Virus record (IMG/VR): IMGVR_UViG_3300032290_000494
Span: 1 to 36,124 of that record
Origin: a virus
Lineage: Duplodnaviria > Caudoviricetes
Strand: one strand, 5' to 3'
Length of the DNA stretch: 36,124 bases
Of the stretch, positions 124 through 36,124 are shown one piece after another (the first letter of the stretch is position 1; every line of letters begins with the position of its first letter). The notes beneath the pieces are model-generated. The model saw nothing but the letters and a program-made list of their open reading frames with translations. It was not told where the DNA came from and did not search any database. The position numbers were made by a program, and so were the translations under genes.

Positions 124-350
124 CGGGCCATGTTGTCGTCAACCTTGTGGCCGTTATGCTCTTGGCCAATGAAGGCGAAGGCATCTTCATGTCCATTGAC
201 TAAGCAGAACTCACCAAATTCATGCGCAGCCGTACCAAGTTCGGCGTAAGGTGAACTCTCGTTAGGGAACGGAGCCTCGGCGTTGAGTGAACCGGGGCAG
301 TTGATGCGGCGCTTTGCATTCGACGCGCCAAACTTAGCATGTGCTGTCAT
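1..350 (-). CDS. DUF2800-family Cas4-like PD-(D/E)XK nuclease, N-terminal part (continues across the junction to 35206; about 381 aa in total)
   Basis: ATG at 350 overlaps the polymerase stop (ATGA). Manual translation gives MTAHAKFGASNAKRRINCPGS...YAELGTAAHE, a typical DUF2800 N-terminus, in frame with ORF 35206-36120. Confidence 0.88.
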   Translation of the reverse strand, partial: MTAHAKFGASNAKRRINCPGSLNAEAPFPNESSPYAELGTAAHEFGEFCLVNGHEDAFAFIGQEHNGHKVDDNMARAVQVYIDYIRDVAASEPSICRYEKRFSLDKLDPPMPMFGT

Positions 351-3109
351 TTGCGGTACCTTTTTCCCTCTTTACCTTCTGCGTTGATTGGGCAGCCTTT
401 CGCCCATGCCGGAACTCGTGTCATGATGTCAATCATTTCGTCAAGTGAACCAAAATTATCTGGCACTTCGCTAATGATTTCATCGTGTACGGACAGGATG
501 ACATTGTAGCCCTTGACTTCCAACGCCATCATGGCCGTGGCCATCATGTCGCGGGCGGTTGCTTGCACCACGTTCTCCGTCAATAGGCCACCCCAGATAA
601 TCTGAGACACCCACTGACGCGTCACACTATTCAGCGTATCGACTTGGGCTGTGTCGCGCATAGCCCCCCAAGGTGTCTCTCGCTGAATGATGCGCGGATT
701 GTGGTACGTAAGCGACCGCCCGCTAGGTAATGCAAGCCCGACGGTCCCAACCCTGCCTGCTTGCTTCACCATATCTACAAAGTCTTGCTCGATGTCGCGC
801 CAGTATTGCGCGATGCGGTTGTTCTTCTCACGGTAGACAGCCACGATGCGCTTGGCTTCGTCCTCGTCTACCTTTATGCCCATGCTGGCGCACTGTTCGG
901 CGAAGCGTTTGCCCCCCATGCCGTAGCCGCAATTATGGACAATCAAAGGGCCAAGGTCAGTCAGGATCGTGAAGCGGTTCCTCGGCCCCGCGTAACTCAC
1001 GTCGTAAACATGCGACTTCCGCACGCAAACGGTTGATTTCGTTCTGCATAGTTTCCGTTGTGCGGCGGTTAAACATATTTTCAGACCGCGTGATAAAGCG
1101 GAGATTGCCCGGCTGATAGCCCGCGTTGTTGTCGATGCGGTCCAGTTCCAGATGCGGTAAATCCCACCCATCAAGTGTGAGAAGGTAAGAGAGAAACGCC
1201 TTTCGGTCTCGTACCCATTCCGGGTATACCTTGATACCTCGTTCGCCGTAGTGTTTCCAGCCAGCGTTGCTTGGGTTCTCACAACGTTGAATGCACGAGG
1301 ATATGCGGTTGAGTAACCGTTCGCGGTGAAAGTCATCGGGAACAATGCCTGCATAGCCGCGATATTTCTTCTGCGTAACGCCAGACTTACGCTTCGCGCA
1401 ATAGTTGCAACGGGACGATTTACCGCGCAGGATATTGTGTCGATCAATGACGCCAATCCACCCGCAAGAGCATTCGCAGCGCGGATGCCATGCACGTTTG
1501 TGGTTAACCCACTCACGGATGGTAAGTTCACCAAAGACAGCGCCGACTTCAGCAGGGAATGGTTTGTATGGACCTTTTGCCACTCCTGCCACCCATGTTC
1601 CGTCAGTATTTCGTGGTCCGGCGTCGCACCGACCCCATTGACCCGATGAACTTCCTTGTGTCCCTGATACACTACCCCTTGATGTGTCACCCATTCTTCA
1701 CCATCCCATACCCTGTCCTGTGTTGTTAGGTACAGAATAGGTTGCCATCCTCGTTCTGTCAAGACAAGAGTATCTTCCTCAAAACAACCAAGGATTGCCA
1801 TCTTACCAACTTGGCGTTCGTCGTCGCTGATTGCGTCAACGGCTTTGTTGTAGATAGCCGATGCCATATCTTTGTACACGTCTCCCCCCTTTCGGAACGT
1901 CTCAACGAGATCGTTCTGCCCCGCCATCCATGCAAGAACGCGGGCCTCAATCGCCGAGTAGTCGGCAAACATAAGCCGATGGCCATCCTCGGCAATCAGC
2001 ATCGACCGGAGCAAGTCAGAGGCGATGACGGTCCCTGCGCCATGCTCGGATACATCCTCATCCGCTTTGAGTTTGGCGATGATTGCATCTAACTCGTCTT
2101 GTTTCTTTTGCGGACGCGGAAAATTTTGGGGCTGGACGAGCTTCCCTGACCACCGCCCGGTTGCCGCACCATGATACATGAGGAGACCACGCATACGGTC
2201 GTCAGCGTCTGCCGCGTTAAGCATTGCATCGTACTTAGCGGTGCTGGACTTGGCTCCATCTTGGCGTAGCTTCAGCACTTGCTTGATGATGGGGTGCAGC
2301 CCTTCGATGCTCAGCATCCGCGCCACTGTCTGCTTGTCCACTGAGGTGACGTTTAACTCATAGCCACGAAGCCACGCGGTTAAGTCCATTGCGTTCGTTG
2401 CTGCTTTGACTTGGCCGTTCGTAAGGCGCTTGATCTCTGCGTCGATATTCTCCGACGCGGAGTTAGCAAGTTTGCTAACCCGTTCAATCAGGTCGCGGTC
2501 AACCTTAACGCCCCGGTCGTTGATGCGTTGGTCAAGCTGATACAGACGACGCTCACTGTCAGGCATTTCGTTCAGTACTTCCGCGACGGACAGTTCCGTT
2601 CGCACGTCCTGTCGGCAATACGCGACAAGTGCATCGACCTTATCCTTCGTGTTCCACCATGTGTAGCTGCCGTCGGCGTTCACCTTACGCGGCCGTGCCA
2701 TCCGGAGCATAAGGGCCGCGCCCGTCTTGTCCTTCTGTTCTTCAACGCCAAGGACCGCAGCCGCTTGACCAAGTGAACGGGGTAGCCCCATCGCGCTGGC
2801 CTGCGCCATCGTACAGCGCCATTGCTTGATGCGCGTAGCTGGCCACTGATAGCGGCTAACCATGATCTCGTTCCAGATTGTGCGTTCGAAGTTGGCGTTC
2901 CACGCCGAAAGCAACCCGCCCGCCATGATCCAATCTTCGAGATAGGTATCCCGTTCATCGCCCGGCTGCCATACCAGCACGTCGTCAGACCACGGGGCCT
3001 TGTATGCCATGCACCAGATGTCGGTCGATGGATCGGCGGCGTACTTATAGACGCCCGTCTTGCGAAGATCGACGGCGCTGCGCGTCTCGAAGTCGATTGA
3101 TACGGTCAT
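347..3109 (-). CDS. polA: Phage family A DNA polymerase precursor with 3'-5' exonuclease domain, intein-containing (920 aa; about 635 aa after splicing)
   Basis: ExoI IDFET, motif A ADYSAIEARVLAW, motif B RQVGKMAILG/CGYG (interrupted), motif C SVHDEI, plus TGRWSG and ENVVQATARD. Confidence 0.96.
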   Translation of the reverse strand: MTVSIDFETRSAVDLRKTGVYKYAADPSTDIWCMAYKAPWSDDVLVWQPGDERDTYLEDWIMAGGLLSAWNANFERTIWNEIMVSRYQWPATRIKQWRCTMAQASAMGLPRSLGQAAAVLGVEEQKDKTGAALMLRMARPRKVNADGSYTWWNTKDKVDALVAYCRQDVRTELSVAEVLNEMPDSERRLYQLDQRINDRGVKVDRDLIERVSKLANSASENIDAEIKRLTNGQVKAATNAMDLTAWLRGYELNVTSVDKQTVARMLSIEGLHPIIKQVLKLRQDGAKSSTAKYDAMLNAADADDRMRGLLMYHGAATGRWSGKLVQPQNFPRPQKKQDELDAIIAKLKADEDVSEHGAGTVIASDLLRSMLIAEDGHRLMFADYSAIEARVLAWMAGQNDLVETFRKGGDVYKDMASAIYNKAVDAISDDERQVGKMAILGCFEEDTLVLTERGWQPILYLTTQDRVWDGEEWVTHQGVVYQGHKEVHRVNGVGATPDHEILTEHGWQEWQKVHTNHSLLKSALSLVNLPSVSGLTTNVHGIRAANALAGGLASLIDTISCAVNRPVATIARSVSLALRRRNIAAMQALFPMTFTANGYSTAYPRAFNVVRTQATLAGNTTANEVSRYTRNGYETERRFSLTFSHLMGGIYRIWNWTASTTTRAISRAISALSRGLKICLTAAQRKLCRTKSTVCVRKSHVYDVSYAGPRNRFTILTDLGPLIVHNCGYGMGGKRFAEQCASMGIKVDEDEAKRIVAVYREKNNRIAQYWRDIEQDFVDMVKQAGRVGTVGLALPSGRSLTYHNPRIIQRETPWGAMRDTAQVDTLNSVTRQWVSQIIWGGLLTENVVQATARDMMATAMMALEVKGYNVILSVHDEIISEVPDNFGSLDEMIDIMTRVPAWAKGCPINAEGKEGKRYRK
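932..1786 (-). mobile_element. Intein (285 aa, precursor residues 442-726) in polymerase motif B
   Basis: Starts with Cys (CFEEDTLVLTERGW); block B ATPDHEILT; block F VYDVSYAGPRNRF; ends IVHN before a +1 Cys. Removal restores KMAILG-CGYGMG. Confidence 0.95.
957..1694 (-). CDS. HNH homing endonuclease nested in the -1 frame of the intein (start uncertain: ATG 1694 or GTG 1583)
   Basis: Zn-ribbon-like RCECSCG...RCNYC, conserved IQRCENPSNAGWKHYGERGIKV, HNH core LDRIDNNAGYQPGNLRFITRSENMFNRR and a C-terminal coiled-coil-like tail. Confidence 0.9.
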   Translation of the reverse strand: MGDTSRGSVSGTQGSSSGQWGRCDAGPRNTDGTWVAGVAKGPYKPFPAEVGAVFGELTIREWVNHKRAWHPRCECSCGWIGVIDRHNILRGKSSRCNYCAKRKSGVTQKKYRGYAGIVPDDFHRERLLNRISSCIQRCENPSNAGWKHYGERGIKVYPEWVRDRKAFLSYLLTLDGWDLPHLELDRIDNNAGYQPGNLRFITRSENMFNRRTTETMQNEINRLRAEVACLRRELRGAEEPLHDPD

Positions 3110-3253
3110 GCTCTTCCCTCTTTTTGGTCGGTGTCACGTTTGCTTTCCTCATAGCTGGCACAAGTCGCATGGTGTCGTCAACAAAAAAAAGTTCTTGCGT
3201 TCGATATTCAAACTGTGCCACCCAAGAAGGGCAACGAACAAATGAGGGAGATT

Positions 3254-4024
3254 ATGTCGAAGAGTTTTACCCCGTGGCGGCCTGAAGAGGACGCTATTCT
3301 CACAGAACTTTACCATAAAAATCTGACGTACCCGCAGATTGCGGAGGTGATTGGCCGTTCTGCCGACGCCGTTGATACTCGGCGTAGGAAGATTGGGCTG
3401 AAGCGAGAGTTCGTTTCGCACAAATCGCCACCGCCAGATGATTTAAGGGAGATGGCAAGGACCATGAACGTAACGCAACTCGTTAAACATTACGGCCGGA
3501 TCAGGTCGGTGGTCGTTCGTTGGATGGACGAACTTAAACTTACGGAGATCATCGTCAGTTCAAGCGGAAGGAAGAAAACCATTCCGGATAACTTCCGCAC
3601 GATGGCCCCGACCATGACCTGCGCCGCACTCATGCGTCTATACGGCAGCGACCGCAGAACGGTTAAGGGTTGGCTTAGAGAAACAGGTATCGCCTCTATA
3701 CCAAAGGCGGAATGGTACGCAAAAACAGATACGTTTGTTCCGGATGAAGTCAAGGGAGATGAGCCCGTTGCCCGGCGTGAGTTCTCCGGCCACACGAAAC
3801 TGATTGCGGCTGAAGCAGCTAACTTCCTGCGCCGCACGCACCCGTCGGTCCATCGTGCGGATATAAAGATGTACGAGCAGTCGGCCCACACATGGGGCGA
3901 CGTTAAGAATGTACCCTTTCGGGGCATCAATCAGTATTTTGTTTCAGGTAAAGGCATCATGTGGATCGACGATCTCATCGCCTACGCTGAAGCAAAAGGA
4001 TTTAAAATCAAGGAGTTAATATAA
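3254..4024 (+). CDS. Multi-HTH DNA-binding protein with GcrA/Myb-like N-terminal domain
   Basis: WRPEEDAILTELYHKNLTYPQIAEVIGRSADAV..RRKIGL followed by two similar HTH-like units; SD gagggag precedes ATG 3254. Confidence 0.6.
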   Translation: MSKSFTPWRPEEDAILTELYHKNLTYPQIAEVIGRSADAVDTRRRKIGLKREFVSHKSPPPDDLREMARTMNVTQLVKHYGRIRSVVVRWMDELKLTEIIVSSSGRKKTIPDNFRTMAPTMTCAALMRLYGSDRRTVKGWLRETGIASIPKAEWYAKTDTFVPDEVKGDEPVARREFSGHTKLIAAEAANFLRRTHPSVHRADIKMYEQSAHTWGDVKNVPFRGINQYFVSGKGIMWIDDLIAYAEAKGFKIKELI

Positions 4025-11332: not shown

Positions 11333-12013
11333 TTGGCAGTTTTTGGATACACTCGCGTCTCAACTGAAGACCAGATTGAGAACACATCGCTCGACGATCA
11401 AGCACGCCAAATTCAAGGCATCGCGCTCACACATAATTTGGAACTGGAGCATATCTACGAAGAGCGCGGCGTTTCCGGCGGTGTCCCACTGCTACGCCGA
11501 GAAGAAGGCTGCAAGCTGGCGTTCCTCCGGCCGGGCGATACTGTTATCGTATCGAAGCTAGACCGTATGTTCCGCGATGCGCGGGACGCACTAAACGTCA
11601 TCGCCGACTGGGAGACGGCCAACATCAACCTAATCATCAACGGCTATGGCAATGTTATGGACAAGGCCAACCCGAACGGCCGCTTCATGCTAGAGATCAT
11701 GGCCGTCTTCTCCGGGGAGGAGCGCCGCCGTATCAGAGAACGTGTCACCGCCGGTAAGAGAGCGAAAAAGTCACAAGGTGGTTACGTCGGTGGCAAAGTG
11801 CCGTTCGGCTTTAAGAAGTCGGGAACAGGCCGCAAGGCCAAGCTGCACCCAGAACCAAACGCGCAGGACGCATTGATCACCATGAAAGCCGCACGCGTTA
11901 AAGGTCATAGCTACCGCGATATTGCTATTATCGTAGCAAAGCGTCATGGTATCACGGTCAGTCACCAAACAATCGCACGTGTAATCAGGGGAGATAAGAA
12001 TGACGAAATCTGA
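11333..12013 (+). CDS. Serine recombinase (resolvase/invertase family)
   Basis: GYTRVSTEDQ catalytic Ser, VSGG, GDTVIVSKLDRMFR and a C-terminal HTH; TTG start with SD gggag. Confidence 0.93.
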   Translation: MAVFGYTRVSTEDQIENTSLDDQARQIQGIALTHNLELEHIYEERGVSGGVPLLRREEGCKLAFLRPGDTVIVSKLDRMFRDARDALNVIADWETANINLIINGYGNVMDKANPNGRFMLEIMAVFSGEERRRIRERVTAGKRAKKSQGGYVGGKVPFGFKKSGTGRKAKLHPEPNAQDALITMKAARVKGHSYRDIAIIVAKRHGITVSHQTIARVIRGDKNDEI

Positions 12014-13409
12014 ACCAAACTTCTTTTTGGAGTTTTTGAAGAAGTACCGCGATGATCCCGTCGGGTTCGTGCGTGATATCCTAAGAACCAAACCAGACCC
12101 GTGGCAGATTGAGTTTCTCAAGGCGATTAGTTCTGGTGAGCGCCGTATCTCCGTTCGCTCAGGCCACGGTGTCGGTAAGTCTACAGCCGCAAGCTGGGCC
12201 ATGCTGCATTACTTCCTGACGCGATACCCGGTGAAGGTGGTTGTGACAGCGCCAACATCCGCACAGTTGTTCGATGCGATGTTCGCGGAACTGAAGCGAT
12301 GGGTGAATGAACTACCCGAAGTGCTGAAGGTTCTGATCGAAGTCAAGGCCGACCGTATTGAGTTGAAGGCCGCGTCCAGCGAAGCGTTTATCTCCGCCAG
12401 AACGAGCCGAGCAGAAACGCCGGAAGCATTGCAGGGTATTCACGCCGACAACGTTTTGCTCGTCGCCGACGAAGCGTCCGGTATTCCAGAGAGTGTGTAC
12501 GAAGCTGCGTCCGGTTCTATGTCCGGCCACAACGCGACGACGCTTCTTCTTGGAAACCCAACGCGAAACACCGGATTGTTTTACGATACGCACAACCGGC
12601 TTAAGGGCGAATGGAAAACATTCCACGTTAGTTGCCTCGACAGCCCACGCGTGTCCGATGCGTTTGTTCGAGAGATGCAGTTACGGTACGGCGAAGATAG
12701 CCCGGCCTATCACGTCCGTGTCCTTGGTAATTTCCCGCCGCGTGAAGAAGATACGGTTATTCCTGTCGAGTTGATTGATGGAGCCATGAACCGCGAGATC
12801 AAGATTGCCAAGAACACCAAAAGCGTATGGGGCTTAGACGTTGCGCGTATGGGGTCGGATGCTTCGGCGTTAGCCAAGCGGCGCGGCCCGGTTGTCGAAG
12901 AGATACAGACTTGGAAAGGTCTGGACTTGATGCAGTTAACCGGCGCAGTCGTAGCTGAGTTCGAAGCGTTAACGCCATCGGAACAGCCAGTCGAGATATT
13001 GGTTGATAGTATCGGGCTGGGGGCAGGTGTCCTTGACCGTCTGCGCGAACTGGGCTTGCCAGCGCGAGGGATCAACGTGGCTGAAAGTCCCGCGATGAAA
13101 GGGACTTACGCCAACCTACGCGCCGAGTTGTGGTTTAAGTGTAAGGGGTGGCTGGCGAACCGTGACGTGAAGATACCGAAGGACGAACAGTTATTCGCCG
13201 AGTTGGCGTCGCCGCGCTACACCTTTACCTCGTCGGGTAAGATGCAGGTGGAGAGTAAGGAGAGCATGAAGAAGCGCGGACTTCCATCGCCAGATAAAGC
13301 AGACGCCCTGTGCCTGTGTCTTGCCACCGATATATCAACAATCATGCACGGATATTCGATGGCGAATAAGTCGGGAGCCTTACGACGCAATATTAAAGGC
13401 GTAGTTTGA
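12000..13409 (+). CDS. terL: Terminase large subunit
   Basis: Walker A RSGHGVGKS, Walker B LVADEAS, LGNP, and nuclease motifs GLDVAR and SPDKADA. Confidence 0.95.
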   Translation: MTKSEPNFFLEFLKKYRDDPVGFVRDILRTKPDPWQIEFLKAISSGERRISVRSGHGVGKSTAASWAMLHYFLTRYPVKVVVTAPTSAQLFDAMFAELKRWVNELPEVLKVLIEVKADRIELKAASSEAFISARTSRAETPEALQGIHADNVLLVADEASGIPESVYEAASGSMSGHNATTLLLGNPTRNTGLFYDTHNRLKGEWKTFHVSCLDSPRVSDAFVREMQLRYGEDSPAYHVRVLGNFPPREEDTVIPVELIDGAMNREIKIAKNTKSVWGLDVARMGSDASALAKRRGPVVEEIQTWKGLDLMQLTGAVVAEFEALTPSEQPVEILVDSIGLGAGVLDRLRELGLPARGINVAESPAMKGTYANLRAELWFKCKGWLANRDVKIPKDEQLFAELASPRYTFTSSGKMQVESKESMKKRGLPSPDKADALCLCLATDISTIMHGYSMANKSGALRRNIKGVV

Positions 13410-13433
13410 CATAAATAAATGATGTGATATATT
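13406..13433 (+). promoter_or_regulatory. Putative sigma70 promoter
   Basis: TTGACA (13406-13411)-N16-TATATT (13428-13433) in an AT-rich context. Confidence 0.6.
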
Positions 13434-35205: not shown

Positions 35206-36124
35206 TTATTCAACGGTGAAATCGTCTGCCGCCAACGAGGCGACAGCCGGGCGGTTATCTGTATCAGCGACCATTGATGTGCCGGATGATACAGCTATGA
35301 CGAGCGATGCGGGCAGGTTCTTCTTGCCCACGACACGCTCGATCTGCGGTGGCGACTTCAACTTCTTTTCATAGATGTCGTCGTCATCGAGACCTTCTTC
35401 TGTGGCCCAAGCCACAAACTCTTCTTCAACACGCCAGCGGCGGGTCGGTCGTTTTTCCACCAGCTTGTAGCCGGGAAGCGCCCCACCCGTTTCCAACAAA
35501 GTATTGGCGTGGCGGCGCAAAGACTTGATCCACTCTTCAATCAGCGGAACCCTTTGCAGATAGTCCGCAACTTCCTGTGGAGATAGGTCATTGACGGTTC
35601 GTACTGTACCGAACTCGTCTTGTGCAACCTCAAGGGCGTTGTTGCGCAGGGCCGAACAGGTTCCTGCTGCCAGACAAAACTTGCAGTGATCGCCAGAGAT
35701 GCGCGGTGCATCCGGCTTTAAGGCTGCGTGCGCTGCGTCAATAAGTTCTGTGCCGTAGTCCAATATGTCGTCACGGCTGTAGCTGTACTCCCGCACTGGC
35801 CCATCGGGGTGCATGGCGCGTGGTTGTATAACGACCGTTATAACTTTATTGACCGGAGCCTTCTCGCCAATCTCCAATATGCCTCCGAGCGCATAATATT
35901 TAAGCTGCTCGTTGTCCGCGACTTCGACCGCAACGCCTTGGCCATGCTTATAGTCAATGACGTAAAGCGTTCCGCTCTCTTTGCCGTAGATGATGCAGTC
36001 GGCCGTGCCGAACATCGGCATGGGCGGATCAAGTTTGTCGAGGCTGAAGCGTTTCTCATAGCGGCAAATGCTTGGTTCCGATGCGGCCACATCTCGGATG
36101 TAGTCAATGTAGACCTGCACCGCA
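35206..36124 (-). CDS. DUF2800 Cas4-like nuclease, C-terminal part (begins at 350 across the junction)
   Basis: FGTAD, IDYKHGQG, QLKYYALG, HCKFC...C and PGYKLVE. Confidence 0.9.
   Translation of the reverse strand, partial: AVQVYIDYIRDVAASEPSICRYEKRFSLDKLDPPMPMFGTADCIIYGKESGTLYVIDYKHGQGVAVEVADNEQLKYYALGGILEIGEKAPVNKVITVVIQPRAMHPDGPVREYSYSRDDILDYGTELIDAAHAALKPDAPRISGDHCKFCLAAGTCSALRNNALEVAQDEFGTVRTVNDLSPQEVADYLQRVPLIEEWIKSLRRHANTLLETGGALPGYKLVEKRPTRRWRVEEEFVAWATEEGLDDDDIYEKKLKSPPQIERVVGKKNLPASLVIAVSSGTSMVADTDNRPAVASLAADDFTVE
36002..36124. repeat. Terminal direct repeat, copy 2 (identical to 1-123)
   Basis: Exact match to the window start. Confidence 0.95.

Follow-up and report, generated by a model that had tools for sequence, protein, structure and literature searches.

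Background

The layout in which one stretch of DNA encodes an intein in one reading frame and a nuclease in another is already published. According to the main text of Gosselin 2025 (bioRxiv 10.1101/2025.01.02.630785), contiguous actinobacteriophage inteins with an unstructured middle carry an endonuclease VII-like nuclease on the same strand in a separate frame (reading frame 3), and invasion by a free-standing gene is proposed there. Phillips 2026 (bioRxiv 10.64898/2026.09.14.751524) describes a cyanobacterial dnaX intein with a LAGLIDADG open reading frame (ORF) in the +2 frame of the same strand, a frame-dependent ratio of nonsynonymous to synonymous substitution rates (dN/dS), a disordered middle, no in-frame forms and coexisting empty alleles; on the dnaX nuclease of Gorbalenya 1998 the consulted texts of the two preprints disagree, antisense against +2. 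Here we analyse an intein and the nuclease ORF nested within it in the family A DNA polymerase gene (polA) of a tailed virus (Duplodnaviria; Caudoviricetes), IMG/VR virus record IMGVR_UViG_3300032290_000494, whose entire 36,124 nucleotides (nt) are called the window below. In our assessment it is probable that this nuclease, encoded in the +2 frame and likely served by a promoter and a start codon of its own within the intein, is the likely driver of homing into intein-free polA.

Two further systems are related. The ShiLan domain, in the available text of Arsenault 2025 (PMC11855218), has a stop-free phage methylase frame running over a hidden HNH gene; it differs from the window in having no splicing domains and in its non-essential host gene, and that text reports no ribosome binding site and proposes leaderless initiation. 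The fractured genes of Dassa 2009 (PMC2677866) carry, in the portion of that work considered here, a nuclease gene between intein halves that overlaps the C-terminal half; they are split inteins with GIY-YIG and Vsr-like nucleases, whereas the window intein is contiguous and predicted to splice in cis.

An intein with a second open frame in polA

The main features are listed by window position, with model quality given as predicted local distance difference test scores (pLDDT) and lengths in amino acids (aa).

347 to 3109, minus strand: family A DNA polymerase gene polA, a continuously open frame for a 920-aa precursor
1787 to 3109, minus strand: polA N-extein, 441 aa
350 to 931, minus strand: polA C-extein, 194 aa
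932 to 1786, minus strand: predicted class 1 intein, 285 aa, in polymerase motif B between KMAILG and CGYGMG
1517 to 1786, minus strand: N-terminal Hint part, intein residues 1-90, pLDDT >90
1613 to 1624, minus strand: intein block B, T55-P-D-H58, within the N-terminal Hint part
1037 to 1513, minus strand: intein-frame filler, residues 92-250, stop-free, predicted disordered, unconserved as protein
932 to 1036, minus strand: C-terminal Hint part, covering residues 251-285 with blocks F and G, model pLDDT >90
1001 to 1006, minus strand: intein block F, Y261-D262
957 to 1694, minus strand: nested nuclease ORF, 245 aa, in the +2 (= -1) frame relative to the intein (ATG at 1694, stop at 957-959), comprising a disordered N-terminal tail, a four-Cys module, a His-Me-finger-like core and a C-terminal helix

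Class 1 inteins act through Cys or Ser at position 1, a TxxH motif in block B, an Asp in block F, a terminal His-Asn pair and Cys, Ser or Thr at position +1. The window intein has the complete set (C1, T55 and H58 of block B, D262 of block F, and H284-N285 followed by Cys+1 of the extein), with C1, T55, H58, D262 and N285 invariant in 44/44 aligned relatives. Its N-terminal Hint part gave PDB profile matches, at E between 5.5e-5 and 8e-4, to the Neq and Mtu RecA inteins, and the intein model matched DnaB and DnaX mini-inteins by Foldseek (E 5.7e-4 to 9.6e-4, prob 1.00). The exact segment is absent from 69 of the 77 scored close polA relatives, which read KMAILG-CGYGMG or a near variant, and present in the other 8 (the 77 being 80 loci minus 3 whose match missed the junction). 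On sequence and model the insert is a predicted class 1 self-splicing intein, which bears out the original prediction of a 285-aa intein in motif B, made from the letters of the window. A close allele (L015:2-745) ends in Q-T rather than H-N before Cys+1, and is either splicing-defective or an assembly error.

The centre of the intein frame (frame 0) had been described as lacking any nuclease motif. It is stop-free, and pLDDT falls below 50 nearly throughout residues 92-250; the description needs the qualification that residues 20-242 match phrog_93, labelled 'endonuclease' (E 1.5e-12). Because the entire 1032-aa polymerase of phage Ijeoma is auto-annotated 'endonuclease', we infer that phrog_93 was built from intein-bearing polymerases and that its label is inherited.

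The nested ORF itself was also correctly foreseen. It is no chance reading frame: it matches PHROG 374 'HNH endonuclease' (E 1.9e-33), its model has a mean pLDDT of 86.8 and is confident over approximately residues 40-235, and the longest stop-free run in an alternate frame of the same strand in 12 other long coding stretches of the phage is 166 codons. It overlaps intein blocks B (1613-1624) and F (1001-1006), and because of this overlap the nuclease cannot share a frame with these conserved blocks.

In the middle of the intein, selection acts on the nuclease frame. Among 7 distinct alleles of the window's own clade, dN/dS over intein codons 75-255 (Nei-Gojobori; pairs are not independent) is 0-0.17 in the nuclease frame for 21/21 pairs and 1.1-2.1 in the intein frame for the 20 pairs with a defined ratio; among 9 Jerseyvirus-type alleles (36 pairs) the nuclease frame yields 0.07-0.23. 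Variable sites in the core fall 33, 113 and 43 times on intein codon positions 1, 2 and 3, position 2 being the nuclease wobble, and 2, 0 and 15 times in the block F overlap, while at the Hint ends frame 0 is under purifying selection. Constraint is partitioned along the sequence: blocks A, B and F are governed mainly by the intein frame, the middle by the nuclease frame. Synonymous shuffling of the window nuclease gene gives on average 5.1-5.4 stops in frame 0 against 0 observed (P = 0.002 with genome codon usage, 5e-5 with the gene's own codons); the third, unused frame has 17 stops for 14-17 expected. The frame-specific dN/dS, this stop depletion and the conservation across many phages described below support purifying selection on the nuclease frame and dual coding with an open intein frame and a separate nuclease, in line with the original proposal.

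Two other readings of the locus were weighed. The first is that a pair of compensating sequencing errors shifted an in-frame nuclease out of frame, an eventuality that the original prediction had itself raised and that comes to mind with a metagenomic assembly such as the window. We regard it as exceedingly unlikely and already refuted: the contigs of 8/8 sequencing runs examined carry no indel within 932-1786 (the comparison is of contigs, not raw reads, and run X2 may be the source sample), 7 distinct close alleles and cultured phages alike show the identical offset, and the nuclease ORF overlaps conserved intein blocks. The second is that the insert is a self-splicing intron excised at the RNA level, as the record of Dhillonvirus SO-1 ('type I self-splicing intron') has it and as a joined form of polA in run X15, labelled RNA, might suggest. 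This is highly improbable, given that the ends fold as a Hint domain whose frame 0 is under purifying selection, and that an intron has no need of a stop-free frame 0; no Rfam intron match was found in 300-3300 at E up to 1, a library miss that is weak alone. DNA runs X4 and X10 likewise contain the joined form, its letters there being divergent, so it is an empty allele; X15 itself is flagged as probably DNA.

A family of nested nucleases

The same arrangement recurs widely. Among 88 loci examined, 74 hold complete inteins. The 63 distinct ones divide into 40 whose nuclease is in +2, 22 whose nuclease is in +1 and 1 mini-intein. The other 14 loci are contigs cut short (8), mini-inteins (4) and a full intein (1) that the pattern missed, and a locus with a stop and an N (1). 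Since only loci with an open frame 0 could enter this count, the test was redone starting from the nuclease profile (128 loci fetched, 119 distinct, the viral scan contributing the best 80 of 251). Out of these 119, 107 lie nested out of frame with neither frame broken (82 in +2, 25 in +1), which also answers the earlier concern that the -1 frame might prove unconserved. The remaining 12 are 1 with a nuclease stop, 4 with a broken or split intein frame, 4 with a single intein end and 3 without an intein; an in-frame nuclease was found in 0/119.

Trees of the intein and of the nuclease (midpoint-rooted, the splicing-domain tree having 102 columns only) are broadly congruent and resolve three groups. 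Group 1 has the nuclease in +2 at motif B and includes the window and the Jerseyviruses, with modest support for the whole +2 group; group 2 has it in +1 at other polA sites and in SNF2-type helicases (APSE-4); group 3 has it in +1 at motif B of Firmicutes-type phages and is sister to a mini-intein. One nuclease family occupies inteins at several distinct polA and helicase sites. In GenBank, 192 phage records match the intein, including Jerseyviruses, APSE and streptococcal prophages. The expectation that gene callers would miss the nested ORF largely stands, as 14 of the 15 annotated records checked omit it (one further record is without annotation), the departure being SO-1, which lists one as gp39.

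Variants of the layout were also seen. At L022:1718-3852, polA has two inteins, the second contiguous with a +2 nuclease and the first split, with a stop-terminated N-terminal half, a +1 nuclease between the halves and the C-terminal half in another ORF. L227:1409-2296 and L250:1268-2179 retain an intact +2 nuclease with 4 and 7 intein-frame stops, respectively, and a Met just before block F; from their sequence they are probably split derivatives or precursors. The window's nuclease family also takes the fractured-gene form, at L022 and probably at L227 and L250. For the course of events first suggested, in which an HNH gene may have invaded a mini-intein and then had its stops purged, we offer these split forms as a viable intermediate or derived state. 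In the Firmicutes-type +1 group (L051, L062, L066, L070) the nuclease ORF extends beyond the intein end into the C-extein. At L211:1409-2500 and L212 the intein is longer with frame 0 still open, and the four-Cys module of the nuclease is apparently duplicated. Mini-inteins of 127 and ~170 aa without a nuclease occur in polA at L064:3001-3381, L073-L075 and L078.

Identity of the nuclease

Three regions of the nested protein stand out.

1398 to 1472, minus strand: C75, C77, C96 and C99, invariant in 92/92 aligned relatives
1068 to 1142, minus strand: predicted active site D185, R186, Y193, N197, N206 and N209, with Arg replacing His, PacI-like
984 to 1058, minus strand: long C-terminal helix, residues 213-237, coiled-coil-like in the model

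The four-Cys module likely binds Zn, and relatives give weak coiled-coil matches in Pfam. Residues D185, R186, Y193, N197 and N209 are found in 92/92 aligned relatives and N206 in 89/92. The model displays the elements of a His-Me finger (strands 183-186 and 198-201, helix 203-209), with N197 of the loop and N209 of the helix invariant. The 'intact-looking HNH' endonuclease originally described needs a qualification, as the general-base His is Arg in all 92 aligned relatives and Pfam gave no match. On sequence and model the nuclease is filed here as His-Me-finger-like, not canonical HNH.

The closest likeness is to PacI, which, in the sources consulted (PMC5714182, PMC3765158, PMC13139853), uses the catalytic set H42-R93-Y100-N113 with Tyr in place of His. 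The spacings from Arg to Tyr (7) and from Tyr to Asn (13) are identical in R186-Y193-N206 and in R93-Y100-N113 of PacI, and PacI (PDB 3m7k/3ldy) has the features predicted for the window nuclease, a His-Me finger with a loop Tyr and with Arg replacing His. It differs in being a 142-aa restriction enzyme with weak similarity: 3m7k is the top row in the VIA structural comparison, with Z 5.5, a root-mean-square deviation of 3.0 and 82 aligned residues at 17% identity. Sequence searches of Pfam, NCBIfam and PDB left the nuclease without an identification, PacI giving no sequence match; Foldseek of the model against PDB returned nothing at E <=0.001, and the endonuclease VII profile phrog_1035 reached E 0.082 only. 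The ESM Atlas contains unnamed phage clusters at 0.95, one of them auto-named 'homing endonuclease family protein', which serves as a lead only. Judging from sequence and model, the nuclease may use PacI-like Arg/Tyr chemistry; a search that was not exhaustive found no characterised homing enzyme with Tyr-based cleavage. At two loci the gene is altered: the invariant Tyr is Cys in L171, and L237 has an internal stop in the nuclease.

Predicted expression signals inside the intein

Two candidate signals precede the nuclease.

1734 to 1762, minus strand: predicted sigma70-type promoter, TTGACA-17-TATTCT, in intein codons 9-18 (block A), 40 nt upstream of the ATG
1692 to 1706, minus strand: Shine-Dalgarno (SD)-like stretch and ATG, written in the intein W-D-G-E-E-W codons

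The predicted promoter is one of 5 sites scoring at least 10/12 in the 36 kb. With a threshold of at least 9/12 across inteins, a site is present at the same position in 72/105 distinct +2 inteins, where synonymous recoding predicts 19.3, versus 0/46 +1 inteins; clustering at 80% brings these figures to 39/69 and 0/41. Synonymous codon choice carries the signal. The Leu9 codon is TTG in 76/96 cases against 12% of extein Leu codons, intein nt 48 is T in 87/105 against a background of 18%, and residue 18 is mostly V, I, M or L in +2 inteins and E or Q in +1 inteins. These promoter counts are inflated by common ancestry, though the sites were free to vary over the sampled divergence.

Almost every member has an SD-like stretch and, at its Glu-Trp (or Lys-Trp) junction, a +2 ATG or GTG. 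Beyond this junction 38 codons of the +2 frame are stop-free in 40/40 +2 inteins, and a stop is present in 22/22 +1 inteins; as the frame is open in all of the former and closed in the latter, translation of the nuclease most likely enters at or near 1694. A candidate hairpin with its beginning at the -10 box would pair with the SD, and would form on the long mRNA only. The T4 intron endonucleases (I-TevI), as covered in the available text of PMC2988022, offer a precedent for internal promoters combined with hairpins.

Another route of entry must be considered at this point: ribosomes in the polymerase frame would undergo a programmed -1 frameshift and make a fusion of N-extein, N-terminal intein part and nuclease, with no internal initiation. 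The +2 frame is open over block B, and -1 is the common type of programmed frameshift. We nonetheless hold this route to be very unlikely: an in-frame TGA two codons before the ATG shuts upstream entry in the window, and no slippery site is conserved, since of the +2 loci scanned 7 have an X-XXY-YYZ heptamer in intein nt 60-270, at two different positions, and the window has none. Moreover, the conserved predicted promoter points to a separate transcript, and no longer fused relative turned up among 744 candidates, a weak point. Internal initiation thus seems the better account of how the nuclease is made.

Signs of mobility of the intein

The flank of the intein carries a candidate trace of its movement.

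1787 to 1795, minus strand: N-extein flank with the ATC-CTY codon pair, a co-conversion-like marker

This pair is found in 8/8 readable intein alleles and in 2/69 empty alleles. Alleles with 73% identity in the upstream extein have inteins that are 98-99% identical to each other; in runs X4, X10 and X15, empty alleles come from the same samples as the intein allele. Monophyly of the intein alleles is rejected on the extein tree (AU p 3e-56, 70 rows), a result confounded and weakened by extein recombination. The patchy distribution (8/77) and the travelling flank marker fit homing, as far as sequence comparison can tell. Just upstream of the intein, extein positions 1817-1846 show ~45-50% identity to the window among relatives, with conserved flanks on either side.

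It could be argued that the nested protein is real without being an active homing nuclease (e.g. a DNA-binding or domesticated protein) and that the intein spreads by ordinary phage recombination. The missing general-base His and the free recombination of exteins would agree with this, as would the view, in the consulted part of PMC5714182, that groups without both His and Tyr are inactive. Yet PacI, an active enzyme, likewise has Arg in place of the His and a Tyr in the loop at the same spacing, the marker travels with a patchily distributed intein, and inteins at several polA and helicase sites harbour this nuclease family. We therefore deem an inactive protein unlikely and retain homing by the nested nuclease as the preferred explanation.

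A proposed mechanism

We propose that the polymerase frame would be read through the insert, and that C1, T55/H58, D262, H284, N285 and Cys+1 would excise the intein by class 1 chemistry, splicing discarding some ~160 residues of disordered filler. Host sigma70 RNA polymerase would initiate a short transcript from the promoter on codons 9-18, and ribosomes would begin at the ATG derived from the Glu-Trp junction of WDGEEW; a weak hairpin, poorly supported, may mask that start on the long polA mRNA. The PacI-like Arg/Tyr/Asn centre would then nick or cut the empty motif B site, and repair from an intein-bearing phage in a co-infected cell would copy the intein and a few flanking bases. In its broadest form, the proposal is of a triple-coded +2 mobile unit that combines a splicing domain, a conserved sigma70 promoter and start written in its codons (even shaping residue 18) and a PacI-like Tyr/Arg homing nuclease, and that would be the usual condition of a large intein family, for the most part unannotated, among cultured enterobacterial phages; we hold this about equally likely to be right or wrong. 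If true, expression and homing of out-of-frame intein nucleases become directly testable.

A number of observations weigh against these proposals. Concerning the intein, Pfam sees it weakly (Hint_2, E 0.057). Concerning the nuclease, the canonical HNH general-base His is absent, with Arg186 in its place throughout the aligned relatives, and the structural match to PacI is weak, its Z of 5.5 being tied with that of an unrelated chain (5.4) and its Foldseek E being 0.92. As for expression, the promoter threshold is missed by 33/105 +2 inteins, and no sigma70 site is conserved in +1 inteins (n=46). The +1 inteins possess the start codon and SD-like stretch to the same extent without using them (mean duplex energy -7.55 vs -7.45), and for this reason these two features are not independent evidence. 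The hairpin hiding the SD has a z of only -1.0, and the difference in accessibility between the groups is small (0.13 vs 0.06). Finally, the relatives are non-independent samples, and exteins recombine heavily, even among empty alleles.

The phage contig

The window has a 123-nt terminal direct repeat (1-123 and 36002-36124), and a DUF2800 (PD-(D/E)XK-like) gene is divided between its two ends; together these suggest that the contig is probably a complete circular assembly. Freshwater metagenomes contain DNA near-identical to it. The polA product matches Pfam DNA_pol_A (E 4e-30), PHROG 17 and PHROG 7766, and other genes encode an SU10-type portal and capsid, a terminase, a primase-helicase, an SNF2 helicase and a resolvase. 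The resolvase-family gene lies at 11333-12013, just ahead of the terminase, and a strong sigma70-like site (11/12) is located at the end of the terminase gene (13406-13433).

Comparison with known systems

A canonical bifunctional intein carries its nuclease in frame between blocks B and F, and in the window it is offset by +2. The separate-frame ORF, contiguous intein, unstructured middle and purifying selection are instead those of the published inteins with out-of-frame nucleases. The inteins of Gosselin 2025 probably differ from that of the window in their nuclease, the latter's endonuclease VII match among PHROG profiles being marginal, and the main text of that preprint, which is the part compared here, contains none of the words 'promoter', 'Salmonella' or 'APSE'. 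The dnaX intein of Phillips 2026 differs in its LAGLIDADG nuclease, its bacterial Pol III subunit host, its single site and the lack of a described promoter. Phillips calls the layout a rarity, whereas in the window's family, spread over three intein clades and several sites, it is the rule.

The nearest relatives in cultured phages are the Pol A inteins of the Jerseyviruses (Ent1, SETP12), Dhillonvirus SO-1 and APSE-4, which belong to the same intein and nuclease family as the window. Those of the Jerseyviruses and SO-1 have the nuclease in the +2 frame and lie four codons from the window's site; that of APSE-4 is in +1 at another polA site. The Ent1 record annotates splicing domains only and the others none, SO-1 alone listing the nested HNH and calling the element an intron; the available text of PMC8425127 on Jerseyviruses makes no mention of HNH. 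In our literature search no paper came up that deals with the nuclease nested in Pol A inteins or with an intein-borne promoter, over a coverage that excluded most subscription journals, InBase and the bioRxiv supplements, the last of which could list cases.

What is new here is a different nuclease family, its overlap with the splicing blocks and the embedded predicted promoter. The published cases treat out-of-frame intein nucleases as rare and leave their expression unexplained. The wide family of Pol A and helicase inteins analysed in this work has this layout as its rule, together with a concrete predicted promoter and start and with members in cultured phages; its nucleases may use Tyr-based cleavage, and inteins annotated as splicing-only may be mobile.

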